Source of the DNA: an uncultured Actinomycetes bacterium
GTDB lineage: Bacteria > Actinomycetota > Actinomycetes > S36-B12 > UBA5976
Assembly: GCA_903892635.1 (NCBI GenBank)
Contig: CAITJH010000017.1
Coordinates: forward strand, 50,909-114,908
DNA length: 64,000 bases
Direction: 5' to 3'
Positions 2,980 to 60,053 of this stretch are shown one piece after another (within the stretch, counting starts at the first letter, position 1; every line of letters begins with the position of its first letter). The notes under the pieces were generated by a model. It was not told the DNA's origin, ran no database searches, and saw nothing but the letters and a program-made list of their open reading frames with translations. The position numbers and the translations under genes are program-made.

Positions 2980-5663
2980 GCAACGATTCCTCGCTCCAAA
3001 CTATTCATTGCTTGACGTGCAGTTCGTGAAACTTGGTCATCATCTGTTGCCATACTAATTTGACTCAGCATGTCAATCACCATCTTTGTCCAACGAACAA
3101 AATCACCTGGCTGCAGATCGCTATTACGCAAAACTTTTGTTATCGCCTGACCTCTAGACCAACGCAACATTGGCCAAATGAAATTCACATCCATTTCAGG
3201 CAGATAGTCAGTTCGATGCTGGCTCTCAACATCTTTGATCTCGCCCCACAACCTAAACATCTCGTCAATAACCTCACCGAGAACACCTTCGGGAAGCGTT
3301 ATGTGTTCGCCATCGTCATCGCGACGCGATTCATAGACAAGCATGGAGGCTACCGCTGCAAGTTGATCAGGTTCGAGGTCCTTCCAAATTCCTGAGCTCA
3401 AGCACTCAGCAGCAAGCAAGTCCCGCTCACTGTAAATGCGACCAAGCACTTCACCTTGCGCTGTCACTTGGTGACCATCATCGGTACGCACGAGATAATT
3501 CAAATATGTCAACACGTCACAAATACGATCAAACTCACGAGTAATCGAACTAGTTCGCTGTTCTACCTTGGTCTCGAGCTTTCGAATTTCTCTGTCAGCT
3601 TCCCAGATCCGCTCGTACCATCGAGCGTGCTGTTCACGGTCGTTGCATCCATGGCAAGGATGAGCGCGAAGAGCTTTTCGAAGTCGAGAAATTTCAACAT
3701 CAGCCTGAGTGTGAACAGGATCATCTTTCTTTTCTGGCTTATCAGCACGCGCAGCAAACTTCTTCATCTGCTCAACTAGCCATGCTTTGCTTTTAGCGGC
3801 ACGCGAGTCGAATAACGGCGGAATTCGTACGACACCGACGATTCGACCACCATCGCTAAGTTCTCCATAACCAATGCGTTTAATTTCTTTATGAATCGAC
3901 ATCACACGAGGACGCGGATCCTCTGCATCTCTAGCTTCATCAAGTACAACATAAGGAACACTTGAGCGCCGGTGAGTATCAATGACAATGACGTCGCCAC
4001 GCGCAAGATCATTCAAGAAATTGATGTTCGCGAATCGACGTTCACGCACTCCATCTCGAGCGACTGCCTTTTCGAGAATCGACAATTCTTTTCGTAAGTC
4101 GAAATACTCTTCGAAATTTCCTAGATGACATTGCGTTGCTTCGGCATACCCTTCACGCGCCTCTTCGCTTCGACGAAGTTGTGTCGCCAAACCAACGACT
4201 GATTTATCGGCTTGAAATTGTGCAAAGGACGACTCAAGTAACTCGCGTGCCTTGTGAGTTCCGACCTTGCCAATCAAATTGATTGCCATGTTGTATGACG
4301 GTCGGAAGCTTGAACGTAAAGGATATGTACGAGTGCTTGCTAAACCTGCAAGCGCATTCGGATCCATTCCTTGATGCCACACAACGACCGCATGGCCTTG
4401 CGTGTCGATGCCACGACGGCCTGCACGCCCTGTCAACTGGGTGTACTCCCCTGGCGTAATGGGAGCGTGCACTGTTCCGTTCCATTTGGACAATTTCTCT
4501 AGTACAACACTTCGCGCCGGCATGTTGATTCCCAGAGCCAAAGTTTCGGTAGCAAAAACAACTTTGATCAAATTTTGCTGGAAAAGCTTCTCAACAACTT
4601 CCTTAAAAGCAGGCACGAGTCCCGCGTGGTGCGCCGCAATACCTCGCTCGAGTCCTTCTAGCCACGAGCTATATCCAAGAACACGAAGTTCCTCGACATC
4701 GGCATCAGCAAACGCTGCATCAACATGTCCGCGGATTCGTAAGACTTCATCACGCGTCGTCAAATGTAATCCTGAAGACAGGCACTGTTGAACTGCATCA
4801 TCACATGCAGCACGGGAAAAGATAAACGTAATACACGGCAACATATCATTTTTCGCCAGCTGCTCAATAACCGAGGCACGGTTAGGCGTGTATCGACTCA
4901 TGAATCGGCCGCGCCCTTGCGGGTTCGTGCGCTCGTTTCGAGCGATTCGGGCAAGTTCGGGATTGAGTTTCAGCAATCTCTCGTCAGTGAATAAGTCATA
5001 CATTTCTCGACCTGCAATGACGTGCTGATGCAGTGGTGTTGGTCGATGCTCTTCCACGACAATTTCGAGATTTCCGCGGACCGCTCGCAACCAGTCTCCA
5101 AATTCTTCGGCATTCGAGACTGTGGCAGACAATGCAACGACACGTACTTGTTGGGGTAAATGAATAATCACTTCTTCCCAAACTGCGCCTCGGGAGCGAT
5201 CTGCTAAATAATGAACCTCATCCATAACAACGTGACTTAAGTCGCGCAATCCTGACGAATTTTCATAAAGCATGTTTCGAAGGACTTCAGTTGTCATCAC
5301 GACAATCGGTGCATCTCCATTGATGTTGTTATCACCAGTCAACAGTCCAACACTTGATTCGCCAAACACTTCGCAGAATTCACGAAACTTCTGATTCGAC
5401 AGTGCCTTGATAGGAGTCGTGTAAAAACACCGAGTCTGTTTAGCAAGTGCGAAATAGGCAGCGAACTGCCCCACCATCGTCTTACCAGCACTCGTAGGCG
5501 CAGCAACTAGAACACTGTGACCTTCTTGGATGGCCTCAGCGCCAAGCACCTGGAATTCATCGAGTGGATAAGGCAATGCATCACGAAATTCTCCGAGCAA
5601 AGACTTCGACATTTCATTTCGTCGTTTCGCAGCGGCATAACGGGCGGCTGGCGAATCTTCCAT
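2973..5663 (-). CDS. helY: Ski2-like DEAD/DEAH-box RNA helicase HelY
   Basis: 896 aa. Walker A AAPTSAGKT, DEVH box (MDEVHYL), SATVSN, HHAG. Long C-terminal Ski2/DSHCT-like region. Conserved position next to tatC. Confidence 0.9.
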   Translation of the reverse strand: MEDSPAARYAAAKRRNEMSKSLLGEFRDALPYPLDEFQVLGAEAIQEGHSVLVAAPTSAGKTMVGQFAAYFALAKQTRCFYTTPIKALSNQKFREFCEVFGESSVGLLTGDNNINGDAPIVVMTTEVLRNMLYENSSGLRDLSHVVMDEVHYLADRSRGAVWEEVIIHLPQQVRVVALSATVSNAEEFGDWLRAVRGNLEIVVEEHRPTPLHQHVIAGREMYDLFTDERLLKLNPELARIARNERTNPQGRGRFMSRYTPNRASVIEQLAKNDMLPCITFIFSRAACDDAVQQCLSSGLHLTTRDEVLRIRGHVDAAFADADVEELRVLGYSSWLEGLERGIAAHHAGLVPAFKEVVEKLFQQNLIKVVFATETLALGINMPARSVVLEKLSKWNGTVHAPITPGEYTQLTGRAGRRGIDTQGHAVVVWHQGMDPNALAGLASTRTYPLRSSFRPSYNMAINLIGKVGTHKARELLESSFAQFQADKSVVGLATQLRRSEEAREGYAEATQCHLGNFEEYFDLRKELSILEKAVARDGVRERRFANINFLNDLARGDVIVIDTHRRSSVPYVVLDEARDAEDPRPRVMSIHKEIKRIGYGELSDGGRIVGVVRIPPLFDSRAAKSKAWLVEQMKKFAARADKPEKKDDPVHTQADVEISRLRKALRAHPCHGCNDREQHARWYERIWEADREIRKLETKVEQRTSSITREFDRICDVLTYLNYLVRTDDGHQVTAQGEVLGRIYSERDLLAAECLSSGIWKDLEPDQLAAVASMLVYESRRDDDGEHITLPEGVLGEVIDEMFRLWGEIKDVESQHRTDYLPEMDVNFIWPMLRWSRGQAITKVLRNSDLQPGDFVRWTKMVIDMLSQISMATDDDQVSRTARQAMNSLERGIVAW

Positions 5664-5686: not shown

Positions 5687-6553
5687 TCAAACTCTTGGCC
5701 GCCACACAGAAAGCCGCTGAGGCTGAACTGAGATTACGGCTGGACCCACCCCGACACGTTCACCATCGGCATAAATGGAGAAGCTGCCTCCTGACAAAGT
5801 CAGTGATGAAGTTTGATCCATCGTCACAGCAGGATGAGTGATGTGAGTTCCTCGAAAAACGCGAGGAAATACTCGAAGCAAAGTCATACGACTCACTGGC
5901 CCAACGCTCATGACGTCGAATAATGCGTCATCACACTTGGCATGAGGACACACTTTCATTCCTCCTCCATACGAGGACGTGTTACCAAGTGCTAACAAGG
6001 TAATTTCTCGATCCGCAACCTCATTGTTGTGCTCAATAGTCACTTCAATAGGGCTGAGATCCTTAAGCTCGCCCAACAGCGCTGCAACATATTTTGCAGT
6101 CCCTTGGGGTCCCCTATAACGATTGGCACGCTCATTGACCTGAGCATCAAAACCACACGACGCGATTCCAGCAAAATACCTAACTTCATCGTCGAGTTGA
6201 ATGTGGCCAATGTCAATCGTCTGTAGTCTGCCATTAAAGACTGCGGAGCGAGCCTGTTCGAGATTCGTAATTCCAAGATGTCGAGCAAAGTCATTTCCCG
6301 TACCCATAGGAAAAACGGCAAACTTAACTGGAAGTTCAACAGTCGCATTGAGCAAGAGGTGGACCGTTCCATCACCCCCACAAGCAACTACTGTGACGTT
6401 GTCTGTTTTTTCAAGAATTTCTTGAACTTCATTACGTATTGACTCCGCATTGTCGCCTTGCAACACTATTGCACCTTGCGACTGCCACTCGCGGATAAAT
6501 TTTGCTGAATTTCGCTTTTTCCACACCGCAGGCTTAACTAACAATGCGTACAT
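5687..6553 (-). CDS. Diacylglycerol kinase family lipid kinase
   Basis: 288 aa. DAGK catalytic motifs VVACGGDGTV and PMGTGNDFARHLG. Confidence 0.8.
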   Translation of the reverse strand: MYALLVKPAVWKKRNSAKFIREWQSQGAIVLQGDNAESIRNEVQEILEKTDNVTVVACGGDGTVHLLLNATVELPVKFAVFPMGTGNDFARHLGITNLEQARSAVFNGRLQTIDIGHIQLDDEVRYFAGIASCGFDAQVNERANRYRGPQGTAKYVAALLGELKDLSPIEVTIEHNNEVADREITLLALGNTSSYGGGMKVCPHAKCDDALFDVMSVGPVSRMTLLRVFPRVFRGTHITHPAVTMDQTSSLTLSGGSFSIYADGERVGVGPAVISVQPQRLSVWRPRV

Positions 6554-26548: not shown

Positions 26549-26632
26549 GTCCGGGTGGCGGAATAGGCAGACGCGCTAGCTTGAGGTGCTAGTCCCCTCA
26601 CGGGGATGGGGGTTCAAGTCCCCCCTCGGACA
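26549..26632 (+). tRNA. tRNA-Leu (anticodon GAG), type II with long variable arm, no encoded CCA
   Basis: Folded by hand. Acceptor GTCCGGG/CTCGGAC; 3-bp D stem; anticodon stem CTAGC/GCTAG with loop TTGAGGT; variable arm CCCC-TCA-GGGG; T arm GGGGG-TTCAAGT-CCCCC; discriminator A. Confidence 0.9.
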
Positions 26633-54443: not shown

Positions 54444-55540
54444 TGAGCGTTCTTGATGAACTCAGCCAGATAGGCGTTTCGATTTGGCTCGATGACCTCG
54501 ATCGTCATCGTATTGAATCGGGAAATTTAGCGAACCTCATTGCTTCTCACTGCGTCGTAGGTGTGACAACAAATCCCAGTATTTTCGAAAAGGCCCTGAC
54601 CTCTGGTGTTGCCGAATACGCGCCACAGCTTGCGCAGCTCAAAGGAAGCGATGTCGACACAGCTGTCAAAGCACTAACGATTCACGATGTGCAAGCTGCT
54701 TGCGATATTTTTCATGAGACATGGGTGAACAGCAATGGTGTTGACGGTCGAGTCTCACTAGAAGTTGACCCTCGTCTGGCTCACGACACTAAGGCAACCA
54801 TCGCTCAGGCGCGTGAACTATGGGCAGCAGTTGATCGCAAGAACTTGATGATCAAAATTCCTGCAACTCTCGCGGGCGTGCCTGCGATCACTCAAGTCAT
54901 CGGTAGCGGAATCAGCGTCAACGTCACATTGATCTTTTCAGTTGAGCGCTATCGCGATGTCATGAATGCTTGGCTTGAGGGCCTTGAATTAGCGCAATCA
55001 AATGGGCATGACTTAGCCACAATCGAATCGGTCGCTTCATTTTTCGTTTCACGAGTCGATGCGCAGGTTGATAAAGAACTTGACGCTCTTGGAACACAAC
55101 AAGCACAATCACTTCGCGGCAAAGCAGCAATTGCAAATGCTCAACTAGCATGGGCCGCCTTTGTTGACACAACACAACAGTCACGCTGGACGGCTTTAAG
55201 TGAGCAAGGTGCCCATGTGCAGCGCCCGCTGTGGGCATCAACCGGTGTCAAAGATCCGACTTACGACGACACTCGGTATGTCATCGAACTCGCGGCACCA
55301 GGATGTGTCAACACCATGCCCGAATCTACATTGAATGCTGTCGCCGATCATGGAGTATCCCGAGGTGACACAGTCACGGGAAGCGCCATTTCTGCTCAAC
55401 AAGTGTGGGACGAATTAGCGACTATTGGCATCGATCGAATTGCTATATGTGAGCATCTTGAAAAAGACGGTGTTGCGAAATTCATCGATGCTTGGAATCA
55501 ACTTCTTACTTCCTTGTCAGAAACGTTGGCCGAGATCTAG
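54443..55540 (+). CDS. tal: Transaldolase (long actinobacterial type)
   Basis: 365 aa from ATG 54443, which overlaps the tkt stop as TAATG. Motifs VTTNPSIF and MIKIPAT (Schiff-base Lys). Confidence 0.9.
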
Positions 55541-57057
55541 TGACTAATCCTCTGCGCTCCCCCGACGATCGGCGCCTGCCGCGCGTTGCCGGGCCTTGCA
55601 GTTTGGTGATCTTTGGTGTCACCGGAGATCTAGCTCGCAAAAAAGTTATGCCAGCAATTTACGATCTAGCCAACCGAGGACTTTTACCGCCAGGTTTTGC
55701 ATTAGTTGGTTTTGCCCGCCGAGATTGGGACAAACAGGATTTCGCTCAGATTGTTCATGATTCAGTGCGCGAACACTCCCGAACTGAGTTTCGCGAAGAT
55801 GTCTGGCAACAACTAGCCGAAGGCATTCGATTCGTCGCAGGTGATCTCACAAGCGAAGAGTCCTTTGATGAACTACGACGAGTAGTTGATGAGTTGGATC
55901 AAACTCGCGGCACGCGGGGCAACCATGGGTTCTACTTGTCTATCCCGCCAAGCATGTTTCCAGTCGTCATCGAACAATTGAAACGATCAGGATTAGCACA
56001 AAGTACAAAAGACGCATGGCGACGTGTGGTCATCGAAAAGCCTTTTGGTCACGATGCCAAGTCCGCACGTGAATTGAATAATGTGATCGCCGGTGTATTC
56101 CCCAGTGGTTCAGTATTTCGCATTGACCACTACTTGGGTAAAGAAACTGTTCAAAACATGATGGCGATTCGCTTTGCCAATAATTTGTATGAGCCAATTT
56201 GGAACTCGAACTACGTTGATCACGTACAAATCACAATGGCAGAAGATATTGGAATCGCAGGACGTGCTGGCTATTACGACGGTATCGGAGCGGCGCGCGA
56301 TGTGATTCAAAATCACCTACTGCAGTTGGTTGCTCTCACTGCCATGGAAGAACCAACGTCACTTCAGGCTGATGCAGTTCGTATTGAAAAAGAGAAGATC
56401 TTGGCATCGATCAAACTTCCTCGCGATATCGAAAAACATTCGGCACGCGGTCAATATGCAGCTGGATGGCAAGGTGGCGTGGAAGTTCGTGGCTACCTCC
56501 AAGAAGAAGGAATTAATCCTTACTCAACAACCGAAACTTTTGCAGCAGTTCGGCTCGACATCGATAACCGACGCTGGGCGGGCGTTCCGTTTTATGTACG
56601 AACTGGCAAGCGACTTGGACGGCGCGTCACTGAAGTCGCTGTTGTTTTCAAAAAAGTACCTCGACAATTGTTCAGCCCGTCTTCGACGCAAGAGTTGAGT
56701 AACAACGCTGTTGTTTTTCGGATTCAGCCTGATGAAGGCATGACAGTGCGATTTGGTTCAAAGGTTCCCGGCACTTCACTCGAAGTACGCGATGTATCCA
56801 TGGACTTTGCCTATGGTGACTCATTTACTGAAGCGAGTCCCGAGGCCTACGAGCGGCTGATTTTGGACGTACTGCTGGGCGACCCACCGCTGTTTCCTCG
56901 TCATGAAGAAGTGAACTTGCAGTGGCAGATTCTTGATCCAATCTTAGAACGCTGGGACAAAAAAGGACAGCCGGAACAATACGCAAGTGGCGGTTGGGGT
57001 CCGCAAAGTGCCTACGACATGATGAAGCGCGACGGCAGAATGTGGCGACGACCATGA
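55540..57057 (+). CDS. zwf: Glucose-6-phosphate dehydrogenase
   Basis: 505 aa from GTG 55540, which overlaps the tal stop as TAGTG. Motifs FGVTGDLARKK, EKPFG and RIDHYLGKE. Confidence 0.9.
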   Translation: MTNPLRSPDDRRLPRVAGPCSLVIFGVTGDLARKKVMPAIYDLANRGLLPPGFALVGFARRDWDKQDFAQIVHDSVREHSRTEFREDVWQQLAEGIRFVAGDLTSEESFDELRRVVDELDQTRGTRGNHGFYLSIPPSMFPVVIEQLKRSGLAQSTKDAWRRVVIEKPFGHDAKSARELNNVIAGVFPSGSVFRIDHYLGKETVQNMMAIRFANNLYEPIWNSNYVDHVQITMAEDIGIAGRAGYYDGIGAARDVIQNHLLQLVALTAMEEPTSLQADAVRIEKEKILASIKLPRDIEKHSARGQYAAGWQGGVEVRGYLQEEGINPYSTTETFAAVRLDIDNRRWAGVPFYVRTGKRLGRRVTEVAVVFKKVPRQLFSPSSTQELSNNAVVFRIQPDEGMTVRFGSKVPGTSLEVRDVSMDFAYGDSFTEASPEAYERLILDVLLGDPPLFPRHEEVNLQWQILDPILERWDKKGQPEQYASGGWGPQSAYDMMKRDGRMWRRP

Positions 57058-57974
57058 TCACATTGACCAATACTCAGGCAAACGAAGTCGCGGCCTCGAT
57101 CAATGAAGAACGCCGCCGTATGGGCAGCCCTGCCGTCGGTATGGTTCTCACACTTTTGGTCATTACAGATGAACTCAACCAAGCAGATGCACTTGCTGCA
57201 GCAAGTCAGGCTGCACGTGAACATCCAATGCGCGTCATTGGGCTGATTGAACGTCCTGGACGCGAAGCTGCCCGACTTGATGCGCAAGTGATGGTCGGTG
57301 GCGATGACGGACCAGGTGAACTGATTGCTTGCCGTTTGCATGGCGAACTAGCCAAACATGCTGGCTCTGTTGCTATCCCCCTCTTGCTATCAGATACTCC
57401 CGTGGTTGCGTGGTGGCCATCTCATGGCCCTCGGCGCCCGTCGTCTGATCACATCGGTAGCCATGCGCAGCGCCGAATTACCGATACGTTTGCGGATGCC
57501 CGCTACCTTGAGGAACTCGCGGCTCGTCTCGAGAACTACGCACCAGGCGATACAGATTTAGCGTGGACTAGAACTACTCCTTGGCGTTCACTCCTTGCTG
57601 CAGCACTTGATCAGCCTGTTGGCAAAGTAATTGAGGCTCACGTTCAAGTCCAGAGCCGAAATCCCAGTGGAGTGTTGCTCGCTGGATGGCTGCAACAACG
57701 GTTGCACGTACCCACGCGAATCTCCCACGGCAAGAATCCAGGAATCAACAAGGTTGTTCTGGCAACAACTAAAGGCGAAGTGAAGATCTCCAGGCCCGAT
57801 GGTCGAGTGGCGCAACTTGAAGTGCCAGGTATGCCGCCATCGACAGTCTCGCTTCCTCGGCGAACTCTTGCTGAACTTCTTGCTGAGGAATTGCGCCGAC
57901 TAGATTCTGATGAAATTTACCTACAGGCACTTCGTGGGGTGCAACATATTTTGCACCCAGAGATAAAGAAATGA
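57054..57974 (+). CDS. opcA: Glucose-6-phosphate dehydrogenase assembly protein OpcA
   Basis: 306 aa from ATG 57054, with an ATGA overlap with zwf. Canonical position between zwf and pgl. Motif DTPVVAWWP. Confidence 0.8.
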   Translation: MITLTNTQANEVAASINEERRRMGSPAVGMVLTLLVITDELNQADALAAASQAAREHPMRVIGLIERPGREAARLDAQVMVGGDDGPGELIACRLHGELAKHAGSVAIPLLLSDTPVVAWWPSHGPRRPSSDHIGSHAQRRITDTFADARYLEELAARLENYAPGDTDLAWTRTTPWRSLLAAALDQPVGKVIEAHVQVQSRNPSGVLLAGWLQQRLHVPTRISHGKNPGINKVVLATTKGEVKISRPDGRVAQLEVPGMPPSTVSLPRRTLAELLAEELRRLDSDEIYLQALRGVQHILHPEIKK

Positions 57975-58648
57975 TCGTCGAGCATTCAACAGATCCTGTC
58001 GGAAACTTGATTGCCGAAGTAATCAAGTTCGTTGATCAGCAGCCAACAGGAGACATACACATTTCGCTTACTGGTGGTCGTTCTGGCGACACCATCACGC
58101 ATACTCTTATTGATCAACTAAGAGACAACTCTCGAATTCATTTCTGGTGGAGTGACGAACGATTTGTCCCAACAAATGATCCCGAAAGAACAGCTCCGAC
58201 TATCAATTCCGCCGACTACTCGTGTCACTTTCATGCGATACCTAGTTCGGATGAAAGTTCTTCAGCTCAAGAATGCGCTGTGACCTATTCTGAGACTTTG
58301 CACAAAACTCTGACATCACGATTTTGTAGCGATAACACACTCATGGACATTTGTATTTTAAGTGTTGGTCCTGACGGCCACATTGCTTCGCTTTTTCCAC
58401 ACCACGCGGCGCTTGATAGTGCTCTTGGCGTAGTTGCGATTTCAGATAGCCCAAAGCCACCATCGCAACGAGTCACGTGGACTTTTCACACCATCAATGC
58501 CTCGAGGCAAGTCTGGCTACTTGCAACTGGGGACGAGAAGCGAGCCGCAGTTGCAGCAATCCAGGCTCAGGCCGATTTTCACGACATTCCGGCAGCAGGA
58601 GCAACTGGCAAGACATCGACACGCCTTTTTACCGACATCGCTAATTAA
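57971..58648 (+). CDS. pgl: 6-phosphogluconolactonase
   Basis: 225 aa. Motifs SLTGGRSG, WWSDERFVP and GPDGHIASLFP. ATGA overlap with opcA. Confidence 0.85.
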   Translation: MIVEHSTDPVGNLIAEVIKFVDQQPTGDIHISLTGGRSGDTITHTLIDQLRDNSRIHFWWSDERFVPTNDPERTAPTINSADYSCHFHAIPSSDESSSAQECAVTYSETLHKTLTSRFCSDNTLMDICILSVGPDGHIASLFPHHAALDSALGVVAISDSPKPPSQRVTWTFHTINASRQVWLLATGDEKRAAVAAIQAQADFHDIPAAGATGKTSTRLFTDIAN

Positions 58649-58703
58649 TTCACATCCGCGAGTTACCCCCACCCCAGATGACGATCTAACGCACAATCAC
58701 GCC

Positions 58704-58718
58704 CAACATTCAATGTTG
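58704..58718. promoter_or_regulatory. 15-bp perfect palindrome CAACATT-C-AATGTTG, ending 4 nt upstream of the EXORDIUM-like gene start
   Basis: Read directly from the sequence. It occupies the position where an RBS would be expected, and no Shine-Dalgarno sequence is visible. Confidence 0.45.
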
Positions 58719-58722
58719 CGTA

Positions 58723-59661
58723 ATGAAAACTATTACATCCTTCATAGCAGTTTGCTCTACCGTGTTTACTCTAGGTTTTCTCGGAGCACCTGCTCACGCA
58801 GCAAACAGCACCGCAACCAGGCCTGTTACCCCGATAACTCACATGAAAAATCCTGCACTTGCTCGAACTCAATCTGCTCGTCCCGCAAATTCAGTTCCCT
58901 CAACGACATTTGCCTACCACGGCGGACCAGTCATGACCGAGCCAGTAAATCTCTATGTGATTTGGTACGGCCAATGGCCATCACTTTCGCGAAAAAAACC
59001 CGTTGTTCAACGCGTGCTACGCACTTTAGGTCAATCAACCTATTTCGGGATCAATACTGCCTATACCCAATCAAACGGAAAGCACGTCACACATACTGTT
59101 CACCTAGCTGCCGAAACAGTTGATGCATATTCCTCAGGAAAGGTACTTCAAGATGCGAGTGTCGCAACGATTGTGGGTCGGAACATTTCATCCACGCCCA
59201 GCTTTCGAACGAATGCGAATACTGCCGATAAGAATGGGATTTACATTGTTATCTCATCAAGCGACGTGCGCAATACATCAGGATTCTTAACAACCTACTG
59301 CGGGTGGCACTCATCTGGAACTATGGGAAATATTGTCACAAAATTTATATTTGCAGGAGATCCCTCGGCCAACCTCATAGTCTGTGCACCACCCACGAAC
59401 CGAGATCACTCGCCAAATGATTATCCAGGGATGGATGCCGCAGCCAGCACGATCGCTCACGAAATCAGCGAGACGGTCACGGACCCAGAGTTAAATGCTT
59501 GGTTCGATGATAATCACATGGAAAACGCGGACCTATGTGCTTGGCAGTACGGAAAAACATATTCAACGAATCAAGCGCAAGCAAATCTACAATTCGAATG
59601 GCGCGATTACTTGATTCAAGAAAATTGGAATCTCACTACCCATTCGTGTTCGCTGAATTAA
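58723..59661 (+). CDS. Secreted EXORDIUM / phosphate-induced protein 1 (PHI-1, Phi_1 domain) family protein
   Basis: 312 aa with a Sec signal peptide (...FLGAPAHA/AN). Blocks are collinear with plant EXO as I remember it: FAYHGGPVM..VNLYVIWYGQW; IYIVISSSDV...GF...YCGWHS; FIFAGDP...VCAP; PNDYPGMDAAASTIAHEISETVTDP; ADLCAWQYG; SCS at the C-terminus. Confidence 0.75.
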   Translation: MKTITSFIAVCSTVFTLGFLGAPAHAANSTATRPVTPITHMKNPALARTQSARPANSVPSTTFAYHGGPVMTEPVNLYVIWYGQWPSLSRKKPVVQRVLRTLGQSTYFGINTAYTQSNGKHVTHTVHLAAETVDAYSSGKVLQDASVATIVGRNISSTPSFRTNANTADKNGIYIVISSSDVRNTSGFLTTYCGWHSSGTMGNIVTKFIFAGDPSANLIVCAPPTNRDHSPNDYPGMDAAASTIAHEISETVTDPELNAWFDDNHMENADLCAWQYGKTYSTNQAQANLQFEWRDYLIQENWNLTTHSCSLN

Positions 59662-59674
59662 CTCTCAACATAGC

Positions 59675-59706
59675 GAAAGCCTCTCACTCAAGAGTGAGAG
59701 GCTTTC
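59675..59706. terminator. 14-bp stem / 4-nt loop hairpin between convergent genes (candidate bidirectional terminator)
   Basis: GAAAGCCTCTCACT-CAAG-AGTGAGAGGCTTTC. The T/A runs lie within the stem ends and no long U-tract follows. Confidence 0.5.
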
Positions 59707-59717
59707 TACGTTAACAA

Positions 59718-60053
59718 CTATTTTCCGCGAAGCTTGGCTAACGCTTCATCAAGAATATCTTTGCCTTCTTTGTCGGTACGACGTTCTTTGACATACGCCA
59801 AGTGAGTTTTGTACGGCTCGGTCTTTGCTTGAACTGGAGGATTCTCTTTGTCGCGACCTGCAGGAAGCCCGCACTTAGGGCAATCCCAATCCTCAGGAAT
59901 TTCTGCATCGTGAGCAAAACTTGGCATGGTCTCGTGACCTTCTGCACAGTAATAGCCAACATAAATTCGTGGAGCTGCGTCGCCGCGCTCTGCTTCGCCC
60001 ATTGGACCTGCGCCGACTCGACTTCCGCGAATTGCGCTACCGCTACCTGCCAT
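59718..60053 (-). CDS. rbpA: RNA polymerase-binding protein RbpA
   Basis: 111 aa. Matches the RbpA core (YYCAEGHE...DWDCPKCGLPAG) and the C-terminal sigma-interaction helix (THLAYVKERR...ILDEALAKLR). Confidence 0.85.
   Translation of the reverse strand: MAGSGSAIRGSRVGAGPMGEAERGDAAPRIYVGYYCAEGHETMPSFAHDAEIPEDWDCPKCGLPAGRDKENPPVQAKTEPYKTHLAYVKERRTDKEGKDILDEALAKLRGK

Follow-up and report, generated by a model that had tools for sequence, protein, structure and literature searches.

A secreted Phi_1/EXORDIUM-family protein encoded at the pgl/rbpA junction of an uncultured freshwater actinomycete, and the possible role of its bacteria-specific motif

The Phi_1 gene and its product

The window analyzed here is a 64,000-nucleotide (nt) stretch of DNA from an uncultured Actinomycetes bacterium (contig CAITJH010000017.1, positions 50,909 to 114,908), and its element of interest is a gene lying between pgl and the convergently oriented rbpA (Table 1). 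This open reading frame (ORF), which runs from an ATG start to a TAA stop, is a genuine protein-coding gene whose 312-amino-acid (aa) product has a single domain and belongs to the Phi_1/EXORDIUM family. In its clade, a genus-level group of uncultured freshwater Actinomycetes, it is an accessory gene of long standing that occupies the pgl/rbpA junction in two lineages and is missing from the others sampled. A preliminary description, made from the letters of the sequence, had outlined the locus as the span 58649-59706, which resolves into the ORF itself, the 74-nt spacer ahead of it and a hairpin on its 3' side. The end of the ORF is separated from the convergent rbpA stop by 56 nt. The 312-aa protein has an identical counterpart, P0121, in public data from metagenome-assembled genomes (MAGs), and P0121 and P0001 represent the same population.

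In a search of Pfam-A the protein matches a single model, PF04674 (Phi_1), with an E-value of 3.1e-27 and a score of 96.1 bits (curated cut-off 25); residues 64-310 align with positions 2-274 of the 276-position profile. A parallel search of NCBIfam with the 312-aa protein returned no model. The family identity proposed in the preliminary description is thus confirmed by a hidden Markov model match that lies far over threshold and covers nearly the full length of the profile. Likewise, every sequence block quoted there in support of the assignment was located, and in the order given: YHGGP (residues 65-69), VNLYVIWYG (75-83), VISSSDV (176-182), CGWHS (193-197), CAP (221-223), PND (231-233), HEISE (246-250), DP (254-255), CAWQYG (272-277) and SCS (308-310).

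The protein consists of a Sec-type signal peptide, a disordered linker of about 35 residues and an alpha/beta domain of about 250 residues that bears four family-invariant cysteines. The signal peptide was delineated by inspection (MKTITSFIAVCSTVFTLGFLGAPAHA, followed by ANS at the predicted cleavage site): it displays a lysine at position 2, a hydrophobic core spanning residues 3-21 and an AHA/A motif at residues 24-27, and an equivalent hydrophobic N-terminus is seen in every aligned homolog. Together with the invariant cysteines C193, C221, C272 and C309, which probably form two disulfides, this layout agrees with the earlier proposal that the protein is secreted. We regard it as close to certain that the protein belongs to this family, that it is secreted and that its gene is accessory (see below).

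A structural model was built with AlphaFold2 using a 116-sequence alignment. Its mean predicted local distance difference test score (pLDDT) is 87.4 and its predicted template modeling score (pTM) is 0.84, with block means of pLDDT of 88-98 for residues 61-310; disorder is seen in the signal peptide (pLDDT below 50) and the linker. The N-terminal part of the modeled domain comprises a strand (75-82), two helices (91-104 and 106-113), a further strand (126-134) and another helix (144-157). The C-terminal part contains three strands (172-178, 194-201 and 204-212), a long helix (235-253) and then short strands. The conserved motif that begins at H246 thus falls in the C-terminal half of the long helix, which follows a beta-alpha-beta-alpha-beta-beta-beta order of elements.

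Table 1. Features of the Phi_1 locus in window coordinates
Feature	Position	Strand	Basis or remarks
Coding sequence of the 312-aa Phi_1/EXORDIUM-family protein	58723..59661 (stop codon included)	+	ORF; Pfam match
Predicted Sec signal peptide, residues 1-26 (MKTITSFIAVCSTVFTLGFLGAPAHA, cleavage before A27)	58723..58800	+	Hydropathy; AXA motif
Linker, residues 27-61, poorly conserved	58801..58905	+	pLDDT 44-68; length and sequence vary among homologs
Phi_1 domain, residues 64-310, confident alpha/beta model	58912..59652	+	Hidden Markov model match; structural model; conserved residues
Candidate metal/catalytic site: bacteria-specific invariant motif H246-E247-x-x-E250-x-x-T253-D254-P255	59458..59487	+	C-terminal end of helix 235-253
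Spacer from the pgl stop (58648) to the Phi_1 start	58649..58722 (74 nt)	+	No terminator-like fold, sigma-70 promoter or Shine-Dalgarno sequence recognized
pgl (6-phosphogluconolactonase), upstream flank, last gene of the tal-zwf-opcA-pgl block	57971..58648	+	
rbpA (RNA polymerase-binding protein), convergent downstream flank	59718..60053	-	
Stem-loop between the convergent Phi_1 gene and rbpA	59675..59706	.	Inverted repeat; fold

Presence in related genomes, gene history and transcription

The flanking genes mark their source as an uncultured freshwater member of the Actinomycetes, for which the closest species-representative genomes are MAGs from ponds and lakes. Relatives at the junction were drawn from four species representatives (L002-L005) and from an exact look-up of the SecG protein of the window, which recovered 10 distinct places in the same genus-level clade; it was far more informative than RbpA scans of genome and metagenome collections, which returned only 7 and 6 loci. 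Among the SecG-identical places the Phi_1 gene is present in one, a contig from ENA (L001), and missing from the junction in the remaining nine; in eight of these pgl is called directly beside rbpA. In the ninth (L020) both pgl and opcA seem to have been lost, which reflects a run of N at about 4900-5100, a scaffold gap and hence an assembly artefact; here too pgl abuts rbpA. The same holds in the species representatives, L002 (RbpA and Gap each 98% identical) and L003-L005: in all four, a gap of 31-74 nt separates pgl from rbpA and contains no Phi_1 gene. The accessory status suspected in the preliminary description is therefore borne out by the sister genomes, with the junction lacking the gene in nine of the 10 SecG-identical places and in the outgroups.

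On the L001 contig an ortholog lies at exactly the same junction, in the order pgl - Phi_1 - rbpA - secG. Its product (P0002/P0123) is 64% identical to the window protein over the best local alignment and 56-57% identical over the full length, and among the matches listed P0001/P0121, which are identical, and P0002/P0123 are the only close homologs. Public gene calls also give shortened forms of both, P0001 with 272 aa and P0002 with 243 aa, which begin downstream of the starts adopted here (leaving out 58723-58842 in the window and 4043-4258 in L001) and thereby drop the signal peptide. The long forms of 312 and 315 aa are supported, because the signal peptide is conserved in both orthologs.

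In a neighbor-joining tree of the concatenated gap, pgk and tpiA DNA, the window sits on its own basal branch, with 80-82% identity to all others, and L001 adjoins L028, which has no Phi_1 gene. Between the window and L001 the number of nonsynonymous substitutions per site (dN) is 0.373 for the Phi_1 gene and 0.387 for the adjacent pgl; the ratio of dN to its synonymous counterpart (dS) is about 0.1, with dS saturated. As an aside, pgl evolves much faster than any other gene of the block, with 57-66% amino-acid identity to its closest relatives, versus 97-100% for Gap, SecG and RbpA and about 90% for Zwf and Pgk.

These data bear directly on the suggestion of the preliminary description, prompted by a low-GC cue, that the gene was possibly acquired horizontally. 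A recently acquired transfer island would be in keeping with the lack of the gene in most close relatives, with the distance of the closest homologs beyond the clade (no more than 49% identity; among the matches listed, from Acidimicrobiaceae, Bryobacterales and Gammaproteobacteria) and with an overall GC content of 46.9%, slightly under the 48-54% of the neighbors. The shortfall in GC, however, arises at codon position 1, and GC content at the third codon position (GC3) is 0.425, equal to that of most neighboring genes (0.40-0.47; secG and gap are higher, at 0.55 and 0.57). The lowered overall GC thus stands, weakly, as an observation, but, as GC3 is typical, it is no sign of recent transfer. 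Moreover, the ortholog occupies the identical junction in a lineage that is only about 81% identical in core-gene DNA, its dN equals that of pgl, and the borders of the gene are free of direct repeats and of genes for integrases or tRNAs, the only tRNA of the window lying at 26549. With typical GC3, a syntenic ortholog of pgl-like divergence and no traces of mobile elements, the notion of a recent import fails, and we consider it very improbable.

Most simply, the gene would have been gained long ago at the pgl/rbpA junction, have descended vertically under purifying selection and have been lost several times independently; this history fits better than recent transfer because GC3 is typical, the ortholog is syntenic and the borders are clean. 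Read in this way, the locus illustrates cleanly how, in streamlined freshwater Actinobacteria, a gene can be gained at a core-gene junction and then lost repeatedly. That the gene might instead be a functional part of the tal-zwf-opcA-pgl pentose-phosphate operon, as a core metabolic accessory factor, can practically be dismissed: it does lie on the same strand, 74 nt past pgl with no terminator between, but its product is predicted to be secreted, nearly all relatives lack it at the junction, and Phi_1 genes of other bacteria have unrelated neighbors.

How the gene is transcribed is a separate matter. The preliminary description had treated it as a single-gene unit with its own hairpin, and the hairpin part of this picture is well supported: the inverted repeat downstream of the gene has perfect arms of 15 nt and folds into a 14-base-pair stem with a free energy of -24.5 kcal/mol (z-score -6.4; none of 200 shuffled sequences was equally stable), and the fold is equally strong on the opposite strand. 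It has no U-tract and is probably an intrinsic terminator that acts in both directions and is shared by the two convergent genes. An independent transcription unit is not established, as folding of the pgl-to-Phi_1 spacer gave no terminator-like structure (z-score -0.96) and scanning it found no sigma-70-like promoter; read-through from tal-zwf-opcA-pgl and a separate transcription unit are equally likely. Within the co-directional block a real spacer, of 74 nt, occurs only ahead of the Phi_1 gene. The tal/zwf, zwf/opcA and opcA/pgl pairs overlap by a few to tens of bases depending on the choice of start codon (55492-55540, 57054-57057 and 57971-57974, respectively), which suggests translational coupling. 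Strong hairpins also lie at the same position, between rbpA and the convergent pgl or Phi_1 gene, in L001 (about 5006-5040) and L002 (about 6345-6385). The three hairpin sequences are unrelated, so that structure is kept at this position and sequence is not.

The bacterial Phi_1 family and its divergence from the plant proteins

The link between EXORDIUM/PHI-1 proteins and the expansion of plant cells goes back more than 20 years. In 2009 a single bacterial homolog was recognized, a 317-aa protein of Solibacter usitatus (Schroder et al., PMC2661892), and in 2026 the biochemical activity of the EXO/EXL proteins was still called unknown (New Phytol, PMC13103426); our literature search for bacterial Phi_1 proteins or an EXO structure found none. 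The earlier statement that bacterial members exist but are uncharacterized is in agreement with both papers. What has changed is the extent of the bacterial side, which now amounts to thousands of clusters. A full HMMER scan of 1.84 billion representatives of 50%-identity clusters yielded 3485 representatives at E <= 1e-3, 1580 at E <= 1e-10 and 407 at E <= 1e-30. In a word-indexed search 160 relatives passed, and PF04674 was detected in all of the 120 that were listed. Named carriers among these matches include Acidimicrobiaceae, Bryobacterales, Terriglobales, Gallaecimonas and Cupriavidus; as they belong to different phyla, the family is widely but patchily spread. The window gene is one ordinary copy among thousands, unremarkable in composition and context beyond its patchy presence, and as a single accessory copy in an uncultured organism it adds little of its own to the understanding of the family.

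Many of the relatives are large proteins of 500-1400 aa in which the Phi_1 domain is fused to TIG, Big_3_5, Big_1, CHB_HEX_C_1, Fn3_assoc, NHL, ASH-type immunoglobulin-like (Ig-like), B_lectin or PEP-CTERM modules. These are architectures typical of extracellular enzymes and adhesins. Examples of such multi-domain relatives are P0143, P0147, P0157, P0158, P0174, P0193, P0208, P0213, P0254 and P0051, with ASH/Cep192-type Ig modules among their partners. The Phi_1 domain is mostly N-terminal in them; it is C-terminal in P0193 and in P0190, the latter having no other Pfam match.

The full-length domain is shared with the plant EXORDIUM/EXL/PHI-1 proteins (PF04674, IPR006766; e.g. Arabidopsis EXO and tobacco PHI-1) at 20-30% identity. 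The plant proteins resemble the window protein in having a signal peptide, an extracellular location (predicted here), a length of about 300 aa and a single domain; they differ in carrying two extra insertions relative to the bacterial proteins. Their regulation by brassinosteroids and phosphate has no bearing on the bacterial gene. For a comparison at the level of residues we used 116 bacterial homologs and eight EXO/PHI-1 sequences from the supplement of PMC2661892. Residues G68, Y82, G83, D181, C193, H196, C221, P231, N232, D238, P255, E267, C272 and C309 are invariant across bacteria and plants, and all are present in the window protein. A second group of seven residues, all likewise present in it, characterizes the bacterial subgroup: H246, E247, E250, D254, W260 and D270 are each kept in 115 of the 116 bacterial homologs and Q299 in all of them. 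The seven are replaced in all eight plant proteins, where the segment AHEISETVTDP gives way to A[ST]LLAGT[AV]TNP. The suspicion voiced in the preliminary description, that HEISE might be a hydrolase-like metal site, gains weight from this pattern of conservation (H246, E247 and E250 in 115 of 116 bacteria, replaced in eight of eight plants), while still being speculative.

One bacterial outlier, P0041 (317 aa, from a Logan assembly), has A, Q, I and T in place of H246, E247, E250 and D270, carries a lipoprotein-like signal (LSAC) and is placed beside the plant sequences in a neighbor-joining tree. This placement is probably a long-branch effect, and P0041 is a natural motif-less bacterial variant.

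Possible biochemical roles of the Phi_1 domain

The explanation we prefer overall, although its chances fall somewhat short of even, is that of an old accessory Phi_1 gene whose product is a secreted domain working as a metal-dependent hydrolase-type module. After export and formation of its disulfides the domain would act outside the cell as an enzyme. The putative site would be made up of H246, E247, E250 and D254, at or just beyond the end of the long helix, and D270, all of them specific to bacteria, together with D181, H196, N232, D238 and E267, which are shared with plants. A metal ion might be held by H246, E250 and either E267 or D254, with E247 as general base. The fusion partners of the larger relatives hint that the substrate could be an extracellular polymer, glycan or protein.

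The arrangement of the motif is what points in this direction. The histidine is followed by glutamates at positions i+1 and i+4; D254 lies four residues further on, past the helix, and the E267-x-x-D270 pair follows 17 residues after E250. This spacing of H-E-x-x-E, 16 residues and E-x-x-D recalls the signatures of zincins, and the order of strands and helices ahead of the motif helix is one that we take to match the adamalysin-type metzincins. The likeness to zincins (adamalysins, fragilysin and ulilysin, and gluzincins such as thermolysin) is offered as a comparison of possible working principle only, membership in these families not being demonstrable. As in zincins, an H-E-x-x-[ligand] motif stands in the C-terminal half of a long helix after a mixed beta-sheet, and later invariant acidic residues, D254 and E267/D270, could supply a third ligand (D254 or E267 being the candidates). 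Unlike in zincins, the second ligand would be a glutamate rather than a histidine, and no Met-turn was identified. In one homolog Pfam reports a weak match to Peptidase_M43. Weak Foldseek matches of the model include the adamalysin-type metzincins fragilysin, ADAM10 and ADAM17 (E at least 0.26, TM score at most 0.29), ulilysin (E 0.62) and a viral matrix metalloproteinase (MMP), none of them significant. The top segment of the hhalign comparison with astacin pairs the two motif helices, at a probability of 0.4%.

Several results weigh against this interpretation. The motif H246-E-I-S-E250 is HExxE and not the canonical HExxH of zincins. The hhalign probability is 0.4% for astacin and 0.1% for MMP-8. 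Foldseek searches of PDB and BFVD returned nothing at E <= 0.001 (best E 0.098 in PDB, with TM score at most 0.29, and 0.081 in BFVD), and generic alpha/beta folds such as gephyrin E and caspases score level with the metzincins. Gene neighborhoods of Phi_1 in four genomes of other bacteria have nothing in common and so offer no conserved neighbor as a clue to the substrate. Finally, the plant homologs are biologically active without the motif (PMC2661892), and therefore the ancestral function of the family need not depend on it. Searches of PDB by single sequence and by profile also gave no significant match. We accordingly rejected homology to metzincins by profile (hhalign below 1% for both astacin and MMP-8, no significant Foldseek match) and retain the resemblance as a structural analogy.

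Plant EXO proteins are usually assumed to bind a ligand in the cell wall, and the leading alternative is that the window protein, too, works outside the cell by binding and not by catalysis, its conserved polar cluster serving as the site for a ligand such as a small molecule, a metal ion or a glycan of the wall. This would readily accommodate the plant proteins, which lack H246, E247, E250 and D254 yet keep D181, H196, N232, D238 and E267 and still affect growth (PMC2661892; PMC13103426). The lack of any detected hydrolase fold in PDB and BFVD by Foldseek points the same way, and fusions to lectin and Ig-like domains suit adhesins too. Against a purely binding role, a histidine and five residues with acidic or amide side chains are kept almost without exception in hundreds of divergent bacterial sequences, a pattern more typical of catalytic or metal-binding sites than of a binding surface, and the mostly N-terminal position of the domain in long proteins, with Ig-like modules after it, resembles that of secreted enzymes. 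Because the likeness to zincins is not significant and the motif is HExxE, we hold the enzymatic mechanism, which is drawn from conserved residues and the model, to be no better than a tentative proposal, and the binding role to be unlikely though still a serious contender.

If the metal-dependent hydrolase is nevertheless entertained, a broader proposition follows for the family, which we put forward as speculative and rather improbable: the bacterial Phi_1 proteins might be unrecognized secreted metallohydrolases and the plant EXORDIUM/PHI-1 proteins dead pseudoenzymes that bind the ancestral extracellular substrate without cleaving it. The scaffold, for which searches of PDB and BFVD gave no significant match, would then bear an H-E-x-x-E...D/E site in the bacterial proteins, while plants would have retained the fold together with the disulfides and some of the pocket. 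The attraction of the idea lies in its combining a confidently predicted bacterial fold that has no recognizable solved relative with an invariant His/Glu/Glu/Asp motif lost by plants, and thus in offering a testable hypothesis for the family, an enzyme in bacteria and a pseudoenzyme or binder in plants. Were it true, the bacterial homologs would provide the first biochemical entry to EXO function.

A distant relationship to the microbial (Streptomyces) transglutaminase (MTG), a Cys-based acyl-transferase, is exceedingly improbable: it was raised by weak matches to Pfam Transglut_prok in nine of 116 homologs (best E 0.0031), a PDB profile match to 1iu4 at E 1.2 and an hhalign comparison with the single MTG sequence that reached a probability of 24% over 45 columns, but the probability fell to 2.2% once the MTG family profile was used, D255 and H274 of MTG align with the non-conserved L257 and Y276, and MTG is outside the top 50 Foldseek matches. 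The MTG query had been confirmed as identical to 1IU4 before the comparison, and the family profile was then built. Thus homology to this enzyme (PF09017; 1IU4) was rejected, on the drop from 24% to 2.2% and the lack of conservation of the catalytic Cys, Asp and His. The two proteins have in common that they are secreted actinobacterial proteins (as predicted here for the window protein) with a local similarity of 45 residues, W-F/Y..E.ADK..W..G..Y.APNGS; they differ in that the catalytic Cys64, Asp255 and His274 are not conserved and no match between the folds was found.

For experimental work on the preferred hydrolase reading or its alternatives, the window gene is hardly the tractable bacterial handle that the preliminary description took it for, its source being uncultured; homologs in cultured isolates of Gallaecimonas and Cupriavidus are more practical. 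Such uncharacterized bacterial Phi_1 proteins, including that of Solibacter usitatus, PVT67_03790 of Gallaecimonas kandeliae (P0020) and CupriaWKF_22195 of Cupriavidus sp. WKF15 (P0072), share with the window protein the domain, the invariant H-E-x-x-E...D residues, a signal peptide and a similar size, at 31-49% identity. As a further likeness, their genes usually stand alone. The window copy and its L001 ortholog are distinct in forming a branch of their own and in sitting at a core-gene junction of a streamlined freshwater actinobacterium. Some bacterial relatives, unlike the window copy, show fusions to TIG, Ig, lectin or chitobiase-C domains, or tandem amplification with DUF4440. The latter is seen in Gallaecimonas kandeliae (CP118480.1, 797898-808848; L009 5001-9599), where three tandem pairs of a Phi_1 gene and a DUF4440 (SnoaL/NTF2-like) gene could encode proteins that work as partners, an association that the window does not show; these pairs adjoin LodA-like and FAD-monooxygenase genes.

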